From positions 53,444,001-53,508,000 of the forward strand of contig NC_043013.1 in assembly GCF_006345805.1 (NCBI RefSeq): a DNA stretch of 64,000 nt, in the 5' to 3' direction. The notes beneath the pieces are model-generated. The model made no database searches, was not told the origin of the DNA, and worked only from the letters and a program-made list of their open reading frames with translations. This document shows positions 3,258-42,190 of this stretch, piece after piece. How positions within the stretch are numbered: the first letter of the stretch is position 1; every line of letters starts with the position of its first letter. This DNA comes from Octopus sinensis. Lineage: Eukaryota. The translations under genes were made by a program, and so were the position numbers.

Positions 3258-5019
3258 AAAGAGAGAGAGAGAGAGAGGGGGGCCCAGAACCTATTGGTAA
3301 TTATTGGTAAATTTTCGATGTATTGGAAATGATACCAAAATATTTAAGTATAATTTCTTAAGTTAATTCAGCAAGAAATGGTTCATAACGTTTTAAGTTT
3401 TAAAACTCCATTTTGTGTGTGAAAGAATTAAAGACATTTTACTCGAAGTATATTTTTAAGAATCAACTTTACAACCGTGTTTCGTTTGAGGCCATTCTAC
3501 GATATTTTCTATTTAGCTTTGTATCTGTGTTTATAAAAATGTCAGCAATCTTCTAAGTCTGTGTCAATTCTCTCCAAATAGCACACTAAATATTGGATAT
3601 GTTCTTTAACTCTATTTCTGACTTTAGGCATCTCCAGTTGTGGCCAGGATTTTCAAATAAATCTGCTGATCCCTGGCGTTATTACATACACACACACTAC
3701 ACCACACACACACCACACACAATCACACACAAACACACACATACATGCACATATGTCTGTATGTAAATCTAGACTGTATTAGTTGCCATATTGGTGGCTT
3801 GTTACATATTCCTTTAATTCCTGCTTATTTTGTTAATTTACATTTTCACGATTTATTTCCAGTAAAAAGAAACACATAACGCCCACTAAATGTATGAAAC
3901 TATGTTACGTTCACTACTGGAAGTATGTAACTTCGAATGGAGCTCTTATGAAATACTATGTTAACTGGAGATGAGGAACAGATTTTACTAATGGGAAAAT
4001 ACAAGAGCTGGTTTTTCTGCTAACATTGTATTACCGAGCGCATGACTTGATCCGCATTTATAAGATTTAGTGAAAGTTACTACGCAATGGATGCAGCTAC
4101 AGAAAATTTTATCTGTTTCAGTATACAGTGAAACAGCTTTAACTCGCTACGTGTTAAATCATTGGTTACCTTCGTGCAATATTAGAGAAAAGTAAGATCC
4201 TGGTAAAGTGAGAAGTATCGTTACAGATATATTTTATGAATTTGATGCAAACATCATCTCTTCTGTGGTACAACATTATCGTAAGCTATATGTTACAATT
4301 TATGACTTCACTATGAACTTCATCCTTCCATTGTACACGTCTACCGTTAGCTATATGCCAGTTGTACGTTACAGTTAGATATGTGTTACAGTAAAATTAA
4401 CGATACGTATTACTAGGAATATATGGCGAATGGAATTTCAAAATATCTGAATAAAAATAATTTTTGTAACCAATTCCTGAAAACAGTCTTTTTTTTTCTA
4501 ATTATTTGAAGTTTATAAACTTCTATTTCTTAGAAAGGTTTCAATACATTTAGAAGGAAAATGAAAGTTATATTTTCTTAAAAAGACGCAAAGAAATAGA
4601 AAGGTGACATGGAGTTGTCTCTGTCGAATTCCAAACTATCTATCTATCTTAAATCAATCATTGTTCGAAATGCGATTAACTCTACGCTGGCTGCATACTC
4701 CATCGATCTAATATTCCTTGTCATTATTTGACTTCCAAGACTGTCATGTAAATGATATTACATGTATTATATTCCGTGTCCAAATGTCTTTTAGATGCTA
4801 AATTCTTTCAGTTTCAAAGATGTGTGAGATGCTATTTTCTTCAAACTATATTTTTTTCTTTTACGTATTCTCAGGCATGGCACAATAAAATATTACTTTA
4901 AATGTATTTGGAATATATTCATGTGTTAAGTGTATCGATCTTGCCACTGGCAGACTAAATGAAACCTCACAAATTTTTTAGTATACATTACATATGTACG
5001 TCTTCTGATATATATTATA

Positions 5020-5065
<46 letters not shown>

Positions 5066-5872
5066 CCTATAGTATCTATATATTTGTTTCAGTGTACAAT
5101 AAACTTATGCACACATATTGTTTATAAATATAAACATGCATAAGCACGTACACATATATAAATGAAAGTAGATAAATGTATATATTCATATGTGTGTTTG
5201 TGTGTATCTGTGTGTGTGTATGTTTGTATATATTATATATATTATATTATATATATATATATATATATGTATATATAGGGAGTGAGAGAGACAGGAAGAC
5301 AGAGAGAGAGAGAGTCACATATTTGATGACTATAACTATAACGAAATTATGAGCAGAACGGATATCCAGACATTGTAAAGTTCTATGAAGCTTTTAGTCT
5401 GCAGCCGTCAGCTGTGGAATCTGTTACAAGAAAACCACGCGATAAGAAGACAGTTTAATATTTGCTACGATGCATTCCAATGACTCTGGGACCGTGGCAA
5501 TGATCAGAGGAGATAGATGCTCCAAATGAATGTATTAATATCACGCTTGAATGGAGAGAAACAACGCAGTCATATCAAGTGTGTTGCTGAAGTTTTTGAT
5601 GTCTCGCCATATATATTTATTTTCCGAGGAAAGAAAGACGACTTCTCTTCGTTTATTTCTGCTTGTGATGCATATTTTTTCCATTGAATATCACATTGTG
5701 TGAGGGGACATTTTAATAAAGAAGTCGAAGCTACAAATCTGACCAAAATATATTATTTTATATACACATATAAATAAATATATATTCATATATGTGCGTA
5801 TATGCATACACACACGCGCGCACACACAGATGTATGTTATATGTATGTGTATATATATTAATATAAATATAA

Positions 5873-9828: not shown

Positions 9829-10041
9829 GTAACTCGTAAACACCAGTCGTTTTTTTTTTCTCTATCCCTGTTGCCCGCTTTGGATCTTTCTTTCCTCTCT
9901 CTTCCTTCTTTGTTTCCGACGAAGAGCTCCGCTCGAAACGTCATACCCTCCTGCTTCCATTTCCTGGCGCCTATTAATAATAATACTGTAATTGTTCCAT
10001 TGTTGTTGTTTTTTTGTTATCCCGTTTGGATTAAAATTATA
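9829..10041 (+). repeat. 5' pseudo-LTR
   Basis: gtaactcgtaaacaccagtcg...cgtttggattaaaattata, repeated at 15973-16189 with few differences. Confidence 0.93.
9910..9946 (+). ncRNA. Hammerhead-like motif in 5' pLTR, variant core CCGACGA
   Basis: gttt-CCGACGA-a-gagc-tcc-gctc-GAAACGTC-atac; GUC triplet, minimal stem III, stem I with one mismatch. Confidence 0.65.
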
Positions 10042-10358
10042 CCACTGCGCGCCTACACGGACCCCTTGTACCTTGGATACCAATTCCCGGATTTTTGCAC
10101 CTACGGATTATTGTCACCATTCTTCCTGACCTACGGATCACCTGCAACCTTCTTCCGGAGTACCGCCATTATCGTGATTGAAAATCATTACCTAATCTGT
10201 CCGTTGACTCTCAAATCTCTTTCCTGACTTTTTTCAACTTTTTTCTCTTGTTTTCAAACCGTCTTCACCCTTTTTCTTCTTTTGTTGTTTTCCTGTTGTC
10301 TCTCCTTTTTCCTGTTTCGCCACCACCCACCTTTACCTGTTTGCCACCACTTCTCATC

Positions 10359-13180
10359 ATGCCTGACTTGCACTCGTTCGTCCAACACCTTCAATCCCTC
10401 CTCAGCCGCTACCTCGCGTTCTTCCCCCCACAATGTTCCGCACCTGCTATAAAACTTTCCCGCTTGCTTTTTAAGAAAACCCGCCATTCTAGCCATCTTT
10501 CCTTTCTTAGCCGGTGCCTCCGCCATCATGTCACACCCCGCGGTTTCCTCTTGAAGTTCCACGCTACCCCCCCTATTCCTCCCCCCCTTCATCGAACCCA
10601 CCCTCGCTCGTACCTCCCGCTCCCTCCTCCGCGCCACCATCCGCTCCACCCGCCCCCTCCTTGACTCCCTCGACCATCAACTTCCCCAGGCCTACCTCCT
10701 TCTCTCCGCCCTCTGCCCTCCACTCTTCACCCAACCTATCCTCCGCTTCATTCTTAATCTCAACCACCAACTCTACAACTACCTCCACACACAAAAAACA
10801 AATACTCCACCTCCTCCTCGACCCTCACCCCCTTCCCCATCCTCCCCCACTGTTCCCCCTCCTTCGCACCTACCCCACCCTCCACGGACCCCCCCACCGT
10901 GACCTTCCTACGCCTAACCCATCTTCACCCAACCACCCCTACCCTCCCCTTCACACCCCTGCACCCCCTCCGCCTGCCCCTAGTCCTCCCACCACCCCGC
11001 TTCCTCCTCGCGCTGTGTCACTATACCCCCCAACCTCCCCCTCTCCGCCGCTGAGCGCTCCCTCCTCAGTAAGGGTCTCCGCTTCACGCCACTCACGCTC
11101 CACTGTGATTAGTTCGAGACTCGGGCGGACGTCAACCTGTTCCTGCGCCGCCTCAAACTTTGCACATACTACCACGCGTCCCCGCAGCGTCACAATAATC
11201 AGGATTGCCTTTTGGAGCTGGGGCGTCGTCCATCCATCTGGACGCCGCCCCCAGGCCTTTTCAGTAGCCTAGATTCGTTTGTACATGACTGCAACGCTTT
11301 GGTCCACCGTTTCAACTTTGAACCAAGACCCCGCCGAGCCAACCTCACTCGGGCCGAATCCATTGCCCTTCGCCACCTCCGCCGTCGTGATGACATTGTC
11401 ATCAAACCGGCGGACAAAGGCGGGGCAGTGGTAGTGTGACGCGCGGACCTATACAGGGAGGAAGCGCTCAACCAGCTTCAAAATCCCCTCTTCTATCGCC
11501 TCCTCCCCTCCGATCCCACCTCCTCCTACCAACAGCAAGTGTCCTCCACCATCCGCGACCTCATCTCATCCTCCGCTCTCCCCCTCACCGCCACCAACCT
11601 CATCGTCCGCACACCCCGCACCTCCACCATCTACTTCCTTCCCAACATCCATAAACCCTCTAACACTGGCCGTCCCATAGTCTCTGCCTGTAATTGCCCC
11701 ACTGAACTCATCTCCCTATACCTCGACCGCATCCTGTCCCCCTTAGTCGCAGCCCTCCCATCCCACATACACGACACCACCACGCCCCTCCGTCTCTTCA
11801 ATTCCTTTTCCTTCCCTTCCAGCCCCTCACACCTCTCATTCCTTTAGATGTAAAATCCCTGTACACAGTGATTCCCCACAATGACGATCTCCTAGCCCTC
11901 CAACACTTCCTCGACCGTCGTCCCGACCCCAGCCCCAGCACCCCCACCCTTCCCGTTTGGCTGAGCTCGTCCTCACCCTCAATTGCTTCACGTTCGCCGG
12001 GGAAACGTACCAACAGGTGTCCGGGGCGCGATGGGAACTAGGATGGGCCCCAATTTCGCCAATCTCTTTCTTGGCTACATTGAAGCCCAAGTGTTTTCTG
12101 CCAGTTCTCTGGGCCGACCCCCGAACTATACGGTCGCTATATCGACGACTGCGTAGGTGCCACCTCCCTTTCCGTGAACTTCTCTGCCAATTCATCTCTT
12201 TCCTTTCCAACTTTCACCCCTCTCTTCAATTCACCTCCACCATCTCCAACACCTCTGTCAACTTCCTTGACATCTCTCTCCGCATCGATCACCCCTCCAA
12301 CTCTCTCACCACCACCACGCCTTCTTTAAACCTATGGATTCCCACCTCTATCTCAACTTCTTTCTTCCTCCCACCCCTTCCACACCAAACGAGCCATCCC
12401 CTACTCCCAGTTCCTCCGCCTCCGACGTTTGTGCAGCCACGACCAGGATTTCGAGACCCAATCTCATACCTGGCCCGCATGTTCAGACTCCGAGGTTACC
12501 CACCCATACTCCTCTCTGATGCCCTCACCCGCGCGCCGTCTCCTTCCCGCCGCCCACCCCCCAACCGCACCCCCTTCCCTCCTTTTCCACCCCTCTACCC
12601 TACCCCTTCGTCGCAAGATACTATGTGCCTTCCGTCGCCTCCAGCTTGATCCCACCACCCGCCCCATTTTCCCTAACCCACCCCTGTCCTCTTTCAAACG
12701 AGCCCGCAATCTGCGTGACCTCCTGGTCCACAGCACCCTCTCTCCTTCCCCCTCAGCCCCACACGGATCATTCCCTTCCTCTAGATCCCGCTGCAACACT
12801 TGCCCCTTCATCATCAACACCACCGCTGTCACCGGCTCCAACCAGCATACTGTACGCATTAGGCACTTTTTACGTGCACCTCGTCTGGCCTTATTTACTG
12901 CATTAAATGCAACCTATGCGGGATGCTGTATGTAGGACAGACGGGACGCCGGTTGTCCGACCGTTTCACTGAACACTTGAGGGACGTTCGCCTACAATCT
13001 TTTTCTCCCGTCGCACGCCACTTCCGCTCGGCCGGCCATTCCCTTGATGACATCTCAGTGTTTGGTCTCGCCCCCCACAATGGTCGCCCACTTTCCAGGC
13101 TCCACTTGGAGCAACGCTACATCTTCACCCTACAAACTACCACCCCACACGGACTTAACACACCCCCTCCTCTTGAGATC
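10359..13180 (+). pseudogene. Penelope-type reverse transcriptase + Cys-rich linker + GIY-YIG endonuclease, with frameshifts and stops
   Basis: ATG 10359; HLSFLSRCLRHHVTPRGF; LLSKGLRF; IKPADKGGAVVV* (TGA 11437-11439); NIHKPSNTGRPIVS; DVKSLYTVIP; AMGTRMGPNFANLF; YIDD 12138-12149; FLDISL; RCNTCPFI; IYCIKCNLCGMLYVGQTGRRLSDRFTEH; TPHGLN. Confidence 0.93.
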
Positions 13181-13199
13181 CCCTTTTTTTTTTCCGGAT

Positions 13200-15900
13200 A
13201 CACCACCCACACACACCCACCCACCTACCTCCCACACGCTTTCACACACACACATACGTAGACCCATCTACGTACATACATTCACACATTTAATCACACA
13301 CACTTATAGACATACATGCACACACTACATACAACCCAACAACGCACATACACACACACATACCTACATACACACACACATACATACTTACACACACACA
13401 CACACACAGACATACATACACACATACATACACACATACATACGCACATACATACACACACACTCACACACACACGCCGCACGTACATACTTCACACACA
13501 CACACATGCACACATACATGTAGGCACACACATACATACATACCCACACATGCACACCCTTACACTGAATGCACACACACATACACCTTTTTGCATCCAG
13601 GCAGCCCCCCCTCTTTTCTGCTTTCCGGTTTTGGCTGATGGATCCTCGGTTCCCGCGTAGCGGGGCGTTCGAGGGCCTTTGCGCTCGCGCGCCTTGGCGC
13701 GCGCTGGGGGCTTGGTCGGCCCCTTGGGCTTGCGTTGTACTGCTTGCGCGTTGTGTGCGTGAGCGCGCTTCGTGTGTGTGGGCTTGCTTCGGATGTGCGC
13801 GTGCGTATGTATGCATACATACCCACACACTCGCATGCATCCCTACCCACATACATACACGCACCACCTACTCACAACACACACACATCACACACACACA
13901 TACCCGCACACACACACATACATACATACACACACATACCTACTTCAGACATACACACACACAGACATACACCCATACACTCACACTCACACGCATACAC
14001 ACACACATACACACGCACACGTACACATACACATACACACACCACACCTACATACATACATTACACTTGCACACACACACTTACATTCATACACACACAC
14101 ACCTACACAGCCATACCCTCACTCATACACACACACCTACCTACACATACACACTACCTACCACACACACACAAACACACGACACACACCCCTACATACA
14201 TACATCTACACACATACACACCTACACACATACACACACATACATAAACACACACACATACACATACACACACATACGCACACACACATATACTTATACA
14301 CATGCACACACACACACATACATACATACACCCATACACATACACACACACATACCTACATACTCCTATACGCACATACATACACACAGACATACACACA
14401 CACATACTTACACACACACTCACCTGCACGCGCACACACATGCATGACAAACACCCATACACTCACACTCACGTACGCACACACCAACATAAACACGCAC
14501 ACGCACACACACACCTACACTCCCACACACATACACACGCACCTACATACACACACGCACGCATACACACGCACACACACGCATACACACATACATCACA
14601 CACGTACACAACACCTACATACACATGCATACACAACACACACACAACATGCACGGACACACACCCATACATACATCACCTATATACACACGCCCACACC
14701 CTACATACACACCATATACACACGCCCACACACCTACATACACACACATACATACACACACATACACGGACACACCCATACATACTTACATACATACACC
14801 TATACACACACGCCTACACACCTACATCACACACATGCATACACACACACATGTACGCACATACACACCACATATAGCGCACATACATATATACCCACAC
14901 ATATGCACACACACACACATACGCACATGCATGCATGCATGCACACGCGCACACCTACACGCATACACACACCACACGCACGTACACATACATACATACA
15001 CACACACATACACACACCCATACACATACATGCATCCTACACACACATACATACACACTCACACATACATACACACACACACTCACTCACACACACCTGT
15101 ATGTACGCGCACACACATGCACATACACACACTTCCACACACCCACACGTACATACATACACACTCATACACATATACACACACACACCGGACATACATC
15201 TATGCACACACATATATACACACATACTCACATACATTTCATCGGACACACTGACACCCAGACCACACACAGACACACTCACACATCCACACACCATACA
15301 CACTTACGCGCATACTCGCAGGCGCGCGCACACAAGCGCTTGCGCCGGTTCGCGCACGCATACGCGCCGCATGCACCTCGCTCTTGGACCCGACGAGGCT
15401 CTCCCGCTCGTTCCTGGGACCGTCGCTTGGCGTTGGGTTTTCCCACGCCCGTCTCCGCGGGACCACTCTTCCATCTTCCCCTCAGCTGGAGTCCTTTTTC
15501 CTTAACCCCCCCTTTTTTGTTACACACCGCGCGCACACATATACACACTTGCTTAATATATACATTACTCTACACACACATTCAATCTACTCGCCATTAA
15601 TACTACCACGACACTGGACACACACACACACTACTACTCAACACACGCTGGCACGCTACATACGCCCCCACCCCTCCCCCTCCCTCCCTCCTCCTTCCTT
15701 CTTTTTCTTACTCCTCTACTATTTACGACCAGTGCCTTATGCCTACCACTGCCTCGCCCTACACCTCACACCGCCTACACACGACGCACACACTAACACA
15801 TACATATATTTTTTGTTTTTTTATCTCGCCTCACACACACATACACACACCACACACGCACACACTCACACATACACACACATCTGTTTCGTTACCAACC
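13200..15900 (+). repeat. Degenerate (CA/CATA)n tract forming the element's 3' UTR, with two GC-rich islands
   Basis: Lies between ORF end and 3' pLTR; G-poor on + strand except ~13600-13810 and ~15305-15495. Confidence 0.9.
13624..15490 (+). ncRNA. Predicted long-range RNA duplex, arm 1 13624-13802 with arm 2 15306-15490
   Basis: Colinear antiparallel helices, e.g. gatgga/tccatc, ggttcccgcg/cgcgggacc, gagggcct/gggttttc, gggggcttggtcgg/ccgacgaggctctc, tgtgtgcgtgagc/gttcgcgcacgca, tgtgcgcgt/acgcgcata. Confidence 0.75.
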
Positions 15901-15972
15901 TTGTCTCCACTCTTTTGCCTTTAAAAACCTACTTTGCTCTTGTTATTGTTAAACTTCCGCCTTTCACCATTG

Positions 15973-16189
15973 GTAACTCGTAAACACCAGTCGTTTTTTT
16001 TTTTCTCTATCCCTGTTGCCCGCTTTGGGATCTTTCTTTCCTCTCTCTTCCTTCTTTATGTTTCCGACGAAGAGCTCCGCTCGAAACGTCATACCCTCCT
16101 GCTTCCATTTCCTGACGCCTATTAATAATAATACTGTAATTGTTCCATTGTTGTTGTTTTTTTGTTTTCCCGTTTGGATTAAAATTATA
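15973..16189 (+). repeat. 3' pseudo-LTR
   Basis: Direct repeat of 9829-10041, runs into (TA)n. Confidence 0.93.
16056..16094 (+). ncRNA. Hammerhead-like motif in 3' pLTR
   Basis: gttt-CCGACGA-agagctccgctc-GAAACGTC-atac, same core as the 5' copy. Confidence 0.65.
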
Positions 16190-41232: not shown

Positions 41233-42190
41233 AAGCGGTCAGCTGGCAGAAACGTTAGCACGCTGGGCGAAATGCTTTGCGGTATTTCGTCTGTCTTTTA
41301 CGTTCTGTATTCAAATTGCGCCGAGGTCGACTTTGCCTTTCATCCTTTGCGGGTCTATTAAATAAGTACCAGTTGCGCACCGGGGTCGATGTAATCGGCT
41401 TAATCCCTTTGTCCGCCCTTGTTTGTTCCCTCTCTGTTTAGCCCCCAGTGGGCAATAAAGAAATATATATATTATATTACATTCTATCATATTGTAGTAT
41501 TTATTAAGGCAGTGAGCTGGCAGAATCGTGAGCACGCCGGACGACATGCTTGGTAGCATCTCGTCCGTCTTTATGTTCTAGGATCAAACCCGCCGTGGTC
41601 GACTTTGCCTCAAACAATTTCGGGGTCAATAAATTAAATATAAGTTGAATACTGGGGCCGATTTAATGGACCCGCCCCCAAATGACAAGCCTTATGCCTA
41701 CAGTTGGAAGGATTTTATTATATTACGCTCTACCATATTATATAATTTATTAAGGCGGGGAGCTGGCAGTATCGTTAGCACGCCGGGCAAAATGCGCAGC
41801 CTCGTTTCGTCCCTCTTTACGTTCTGAGTTCAAATTCTGCCGAGGACGAATTTGTCTTTCATCTCTGGGGGTCAAGAAAATAAGTACTAGTTGAACACTG
41901 ATGTCGATGTAATCGACTTAACCCCCTCCCTCCCAAATTTCTGTCTTTGTGTCTATAGAAGATAGGATCATTTAAGGCGGTGAGCTGGCGGAATCGTTAG
42001 CACGCCGGATAAAATTCTTAGCGGCATTTCATCCGTCTTTACGTTCAGAGTTCAAATTCCACCGAGGTCGACTTTGCCTTTCATCCTTTCGAGGTCAATT
42101 AAATAAGTACCAGTTGAGTATTGAGGTCGATGTAGTCGACTCATACCCTCCCCCAAATTTACTGGCTTTGTGTCAAAAATTGAAACCAAT
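41233..42190 (+). mobile_element. Head-to-tail array of four SINE family B copies
   Basis: Heads (a)ggcggtgagctggcagaatcgttagcacgcc at ~41233, 41508, 41754, 41976. Confidence 0.9.

Follow-up and report, generated by a model that had tools for sequence, protein, structure and literature searches.

A-to-I editing of RNA is normally not inherited. In long perfect duplexes ADAR reaches an end point of about 50% conversion, with 40-50% over about 50 bp (PMC11019741), and its neighbour order is U>A>C>G on the 5' side and G>C~A>U on the 3' side (PMC3113232). ADAR-type A-to-G hypermutation is also described in retroviral DNA, in the U3 of Rous-associated virus and in an inverted repeat of avian leukosis virus (summarised in PMC12925331), and APOBEC-edited elements are described as fixed in genomes (PMC4866542, PMC2873906).

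The locus reported here lies in a window of Octopus sinensis DNA, by which we mean the whole stretch of 64,000 nucleotides that was analysed (contig NC_043013.1). It broadly matches the level and the neighbour order reported for ADAR hyper-editing of long dsRNA (PMC11019741, PMC3113232); yet that hyper-editing is normally transient and read from RNA, whereas the changes described below are read from genomic DNA. With the retroviral cases, as they are summarised in PMC12925331, it shares an inverted repeat in a reverse-transcribed RNA and the conversion of nearly 50% of A to G in the DNA copy. Those cases are exogenous, whereas the present one concerns a non-viral retrotransposon in which successive subfamilies inherit the changes, and its sister copies still carry the sequence as it was before editing. 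The LTR retrotransposons of vertebrates edited by APOBEC (PMC4866542) are alike in that a deaminase burst, strand-biased and seen against unedited relatives, was fixed during retrotransposition. That editing, however, is G-to-A on DNA and absent from invertebrates according to one of the paper's section headings, and its accessible text does not mention ADAR; here, in contrast, A is changed to G within a duplex only, and further copies descend from the edited one. In the literature searched, with few subscription journals within reach, we found no paper on ADAR edits fixed in the source lineage of a retrotransposon. What is distinct here is the substrate, a duplex formed in cis within the tail of the element itself, and the fate of the edited molecule, which is the ancestor of later subfamilies.

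The element and its two arms

Positions 9829-16189 of the window are a single copy of a Penelope-like retrotransposon, read on the plus strand, with the two-arm duplex in its 3' tail. An upstream pseudo-LTR (9829-10041), in which part of the 3' end is repeated in tandem, adjoins a (TA)n microsatellite, and a downstream pseudo-LTR (15973-16189) is followed by another (TA)n; the direct repeat 9911-10041/16059-16189 agrees at 98%, in keeping with the partial tandem insertion by which pseudo-LTRs are recognised. Both contain a minimal hammerhead-like motif (9916-9942 and 16064-16090) with a palindromic third stem and a variant core, differing from what we take to be the canonical hammerhead core. 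This core is the same or near-identical in the single-copy and early two-arm loci that were displayed. Rfam gave no hammerhead match to these motifs at E<=5, and nothing above the gathering score, the only matches being microsatellite-driven ones of miRNA and snoRNA type. Between the pseudo-LTRs, tblastn and homologs place a Penelope-like ORF at 10248-13168, encoding a reverse transcriptase (RT) with a GIY-YIG endonuclease at the C terminus. It is broken in the window copy, where the 986-aa frame that is open in copy L086 is split into three. The L086 protein has 683 homologs, with identity of at most 57% among the 120 matches listed and with PF00078 and, in part, PF01541. A direct Pfam scan of the L086 protein gave no family at E<=0.001, and the names RT and GIY-YIG therefore rest on the homologs and on motifs in the translation. 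One of these, C-x4-C-xx-C, fits the CX2-5CxxC upstream of GIY-YIG in the definition of Neptune and Nematis (PMC8557442). Elements of that type, as described in the accessible text of the same paper, also combine RT with a C-terminal GIY-YIG, pseudo-LTRs, a hammerhead-like motif, a microsatellite target and a tendency to inverted copies. Unlike that description, the element studied here has a tail of about 2.8 kb, mostly CA microsatellite, with an internal long-range duplex.

The tail begins with an unpaired CA/CATA-rich tract (13200-13590). The A-poor left arm follows (13596-13813), its outer part, to about 13745, being an inverted duplicate of the right region and its inner part a TG-rich extension. 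A CA-rich loop of about 1.5 kb (13814-15294; 41% A, 5% G), which belongs to the element and is not enriched in G, separates it from the right arm (15295-15490), which consists of the original segment on the outside (15377-15490) and a recruited CA microsatellite on the inside (15295-15376). Elsewhere in the element and in the family copies, the sense strand of the coding part (10300-13200 in the window) has a strong surplus of C (43% C, 14% G). Among rare changes outside the arms, T>C is more frequent than A>G (61/22811 versus 18/15274, p=0.002), a strand-specific bias that perhaps reflects G.U wobble errors of the RT. The window also holds an unrelated inverted repeat (8485-8617/8977-9109), 133 nt long with 73% complementarity, which consists of two copies of another short repeat, and a 222-nt repeat in two tandem copies (41750-42174).

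The first-pass annotation had proposed the arms as a possible genomic fossil of ADAR editing, and its counts are exact: there are 7 A in the 180 nt of 13621-13800, five of them after G, and 6 A in 15380-15464, again five after G, amid flanks of about 40% A. From these it argued that mainly ADAR-resistant A's, those preceded by G, had survived, and this part of the argument fails. The enrichment depends on where the borders are drawn, with P=0.11 and P=0.017 in the two quoted stretches but 5/11 and 6/27 in the whole arms (P=0.44 and 0.85), that is, 11 of 38 A after G over both. Moreover, seven of the ten cited GA contain an A that arose later, two are ancestral GA (13638, 13642), and one lies within an ancestral A run (15462). 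In the best-paired stretch, 15296-15375, all 17 A are paired with U and none follows G.

In the window copy 148 inter-arm pairs are predicted (94 G-C, 31 A-U and 23 G.U). The inter-arm duplex reaches -218 kcal/mol, against -149 +/- 8.5 in 100 dinucleotide shuffles of the right arm (best -170), and the fold of the whole of 13550-15560 retains the long-range pairing. Folded singly the arms are not unusual (z -1.6 and -0.7); the signal is that of the inter-arm duplex. The helices had been called rich in G.U pairs; this is truer of three of the earliest two-arm copies (23-28% of pairs) than of the window copy (16%).

From the host genome 140 family stretches were retrieved, and 50 further loci came from two sequence searches. 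A left-arm search of that genome scored 40 near-identical matches of 389 candidates and an endonuclease search 150 matches at 84-100% identity. All counts are based on loci L031-L220 and the window, with 30 loci picked by their left-arm likeness excluded; a 'young' filter was passed by 72 of 121 sequences. Some rows of a first tree had non-homologous 5' flanks, giving long branches; a protein tree was rooted on eight unnamed homologs of 53-57% identity. The copies fall into a ladder of subfamilies. Its root split, with modest support (SH-aLRT 83-89), sets an arm-less clade against all others; next come 'single-copy' elements with the right region only (32 loci), and then the two-arm elements. 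In the alignments the left arm matches the right region of the single-copy elements in reverse complement, and sequence comparison thus establishes its origin as an inverted duplication of about 145 nt of the element's own 3' tail. The earlier suggestion that the arms derive from flanking microsatellite is accordingly too narrow, the source being a partly unique segment. Inverted truncated copies are described as typical of Penelope-like elements (PMC8557442), and the inverted copy may have arisen through such behaviour. The arm-less sister clade (L031, L032, L034, L035, L036, L041, L045 and L052), whose CA tails reach about 2.5 kb and whose terminal branches are short, is a ready control lineage without the duplex. 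Two further features of the tails were observed. L035 and L084, which belong to different subfamilies, share an insertion inside the CA tail, an unrelated fragment that is GC-balanced and seems to derive from another retroelement; and in L044, L084, L141 and L145 short tandem expansions of TG- or CG-rich units in the left arm lengthen the pairing surface.

The founding A>G changes in the arms

The founding step was scored as the majority of 12 of the 32 single-copy loci against the four earliest two-arm loci, the RNA (sense) strand being taken from the orientation of the ORF. In the arms 33 of 61 sense-strand A (54%) became G, 16/31 on the right and 17/30 on the left. The other transitions are nearly absent: T>C was scored at 1/73 sites, C>T at 0/49 and G>A at 1/56. 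Eight more changes are transversions. On the same branch A>G amounts to 1/214 in the endonuclease and the start of the tail (11 versus 3 loci) and to 4/219 in the non-coding, unpaired tail behind the right arm (22 versus 3 loci; p=9e-22 against the arms, the sites not being independent draws since the founding changes are one lineage event or few), with 5/798 for the same region among the 32 single-copy loci. The excess is present copy by copy in all arms examined, with 12-16 of 31 A>G in each of 12 right arms and 18-27 of 37-45 in each of 14 left arms, or 39-63% per arm per copy overall. At all 32 resolved sites where G has replaced A, the opposite position in the other arm has kept its T (two are unresolved), which makes the direction of change independent of the tree. 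A perfect helix of 71 A-U and 57 G-C pairs thereby came to hold 34 G.U among 101 scored pairs. Symmetric substitution spectra in the arms had been named in advance as the outcome that would speak against editing; the spectra are strongly asymmetric (sense A>G), the changes lie in the paired arms only, and their polarity is given by sister copies that lack the duplex.

The neighbours of the changed sites resemble those of ADAR. By 5' neighbour, 13/14 scored sites were changed after A, 10/14 after U, 13/25 after C and 2/7 after G; by 3' neighbour, 5/6 before G, 14/16 before C, 8/15 before A and 10/23 before U. With ranks taken from human ADAR1 (Table 3 of PMC3113232), a combined 5' and 3' score, its ordinal weights chosen by us, separates changed from unchanged sites (p=4e-4). 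On the other hand, 5' A stands above 5' U, against the ADAR order with U first. Of the two predictions made beforehand, the confinement of the A>G excess to the arms is borne out; as to depletion after G, this is the lowest class, at 2/7 against 36/54 for the other neighbours, but taken alone the difference is below significance (one-sided p=0.064). At 19 of the 61 founding sites every copy has G, and at 11 the early copies differ from one another, a pattern suggestive of more than one round of editing, although reversion or recombination could contribute to it.

Could these changes have come about without a deaminase? An RT that misreads A as G, on a structured template or with a skewed dNTP pool, would give the same strand bias, and the T>C excess outside the arms is an RT-like strand asymmetry. 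That asymmetry, however, runs in the opposite direction, and the A-rich loop between the arms is spared, so that the process follows pairing and not a stretch of synthesis. Given also that the conversion level and the neighbour ranks fit ADAR, we consider RT error very unlikely.

A slightly smaller chance still is given to ordinary mutation combined with selection on the helix, whereby pairing was kept and G-C raised until the arms were A-poor. In its favour, the founding branch shows suppression of T>C in the arms (1/73 versus 16/175, p=0.03). But selection that keeps pairs tolerates C>U as well as A>G, and no C>T accompanies the 33 A>G; among the transitions outside the arms A>G is the less frequent one; and a 54% change on a branch with a 1-2% background needs dozens of separate sweeps. 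Nor were the pairs strengthened. Since A-U was turned into G.U, the founding changes weakened the helix, the core falling from -239 kcal/mol in the perfect ancestral form to -129 in an early two-arm copy, and with -122 today it is no more stable. Selection for a stable GC-rich helix alone, the alternative offered in the first-pass annotation, therefore fails at the founding step, for which the selective explanation as a whole is largely refuted.

Inverted repeats in DNA can extrude hairpins, and deamination or repair in such a hairpin, or gene conversion between the arms, could in principle have changed the DNA after insertion, but this is the least likely of the three, as both DNA strands form the hairpin and T>C should then equal A>G (1/73 versus 33/61), and conversion would carry the change into the partner arm, where T is kept (32/32).

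Later history and recent copies

The changes did not end with the founding step. For the later trunk, from the earliest two-arm group to that of the window, group majorities were compared on the imposed ladder, with ambiguous alignment in the microsatellite-like inner parts; the endonuclease control is coding and too strict here, and non-coding flanks were therefore added. A>G affects 31/63 sites in the arms versus 9/131 in the unpaired non-coding flanks, and T>C 47/95 versus 29/126, whereas C>T is no different (23/78 versus 37/180). At the level of aligned sequences, an excess of both A>G and T>C after the founding step is thus established. Much of the later A>G falls in the CA microsatellite newly recruited to the inner helix (16/32), where the alignment is less sure. 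Along the ladder G-C pairs become more frequent, from 32-41% of all pairs to 63-64%, and G.U declines to 15-16%. Here selection on the helix has a better footing: the T>C enrichment and the rising G-C share both favour it, and selection for pairing probably shapes this later phase. U>C is found opposite 19/32 edited sites and opposite 6/18 where A was kept, a difference that is not significant (p=0.14). The proposed ratchet holds for A.U to G.U but not for A.C to G.C, the G-C pairs having probably arisen by U>C opposite G. Co-adaptation of the arms is only partial: the present right arm pairs more stably with recent left arms (-108 to -122 versus -80), but today's left arm pairs equally well with the oldest right arm (-121).

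In the 72 young copies rare A>G is again more frequent in the arms (12/2975) than outside (18/15274, p=0.002), and T>C is equal. Almost all of these A>G lie in the right arm, the left arm having no excess (1/1064). No hyper-edited copy is present among the 72, the maximum being three rare A>G in the arms. One copy, L047 (G000:C4:69675400-69682000), has behind its right arm one more CA tract in inverted orientation, which extends the duplex (about 3300-3450 and 4915-5250). In its newly paired flanks A>G amounts to 13/52 upstream and 7/14 to 11/19 downstream, and in the same flanks of two siblings to 0-2 of 61-62 and 0 of 19-20, respectively. L047, a single copy scored in hand-chosen windows, is a natural replicate in which A>G appears to spread with the duplex.

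A host editing enzyme as the proposed mutator of a retrotransposon

The inverted duplication and its direction, the strand-specific, arm-confined A>G changes, and their inheritance by later subfamilies including the window copy are established by comparison of genomic copies. That ADAR was the enzyme responsible is suggested by what is found in this DNA, namely A>G on the RNA strand only, confined to long paired regions with the loop spared, and conversion of about half of the A. We consider it very probable that ADAR editing of the folded RNA was written back to DNA by the element's RT. The central proposal of the first-pass annotation is thereby upheld, on the polarity given by sister copies, on strand, confinement and level, and not on the 5' G. 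The host genome has 17 exon-level matches over cut-off to PF02137, the adenosine-deaminase family, whose class may be ADAR, ADAD or ADAT. Against ADAR, the inner helix of the window copy retains 17 paired A whose 5' neighbours are favourable. Contigs of three presumed-RNA runs and one untyped run, covering the right arm only, contain no A>G cluster. Position 15362 is G in two presumed-RNA runs and not in the untyped run; as the same G occurs in 1 of 72 genomic copies, nothing is concluded from it about RNA editing.

The ADAR account would run as follows. In an ancestor, about 145 nt of the 3' tail were duplicated in inverted orientation, and the ancestor's RNA would thereby have folded into the predicted duplex. 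ADAR would then have deaminated about half of the adenosines in both arms, presumably on germline RNA and in more than one round, and the element's RT, reading inosine as G, would have given new genomic copies their sense-strand A>G. Weakening of the perfect hairpin may have let the edited molecule found a lineage, and later U>C changes, under selection for pairing or by RT bias, may have turned G.U into G-C. The short terminal branches of the arm-less sister clade indicate that the duplex is not essential for transposition. Given these branches, the initial suppression of T>C (p=0.03) and the keeping of pairing, our best guess is that the duplex is a tolerated by-product that was later mildly constrained. 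On balance we favour the broader view that ADAR has acted repeatedly as a germline mutator of this living retrotransposon lineage, targeted by structure: whenever the RNA gains new pairing, the paired part would be edited, copied back, inherited and in part repaired by U>C, so that a host enzyme would have built a GC-rich RNA structure from A-rich, microsatellite-like DNA.

Because the family keeps the pre-editing, the earliest edited and several later states, one can count, for each site, how RNA edits entered germline DNA and were amplified. If the ADAR account is true, ADAR would join APOBEC as a directional mutator of evolving retroelements, and dating of such elements by divergence would be distorted. 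For coleoids, in which the structures underlying editing are said to be unknown (PMC11019741), the arms would also be a natural record of the neighbour preferences of the host ADAR on a known duplex.
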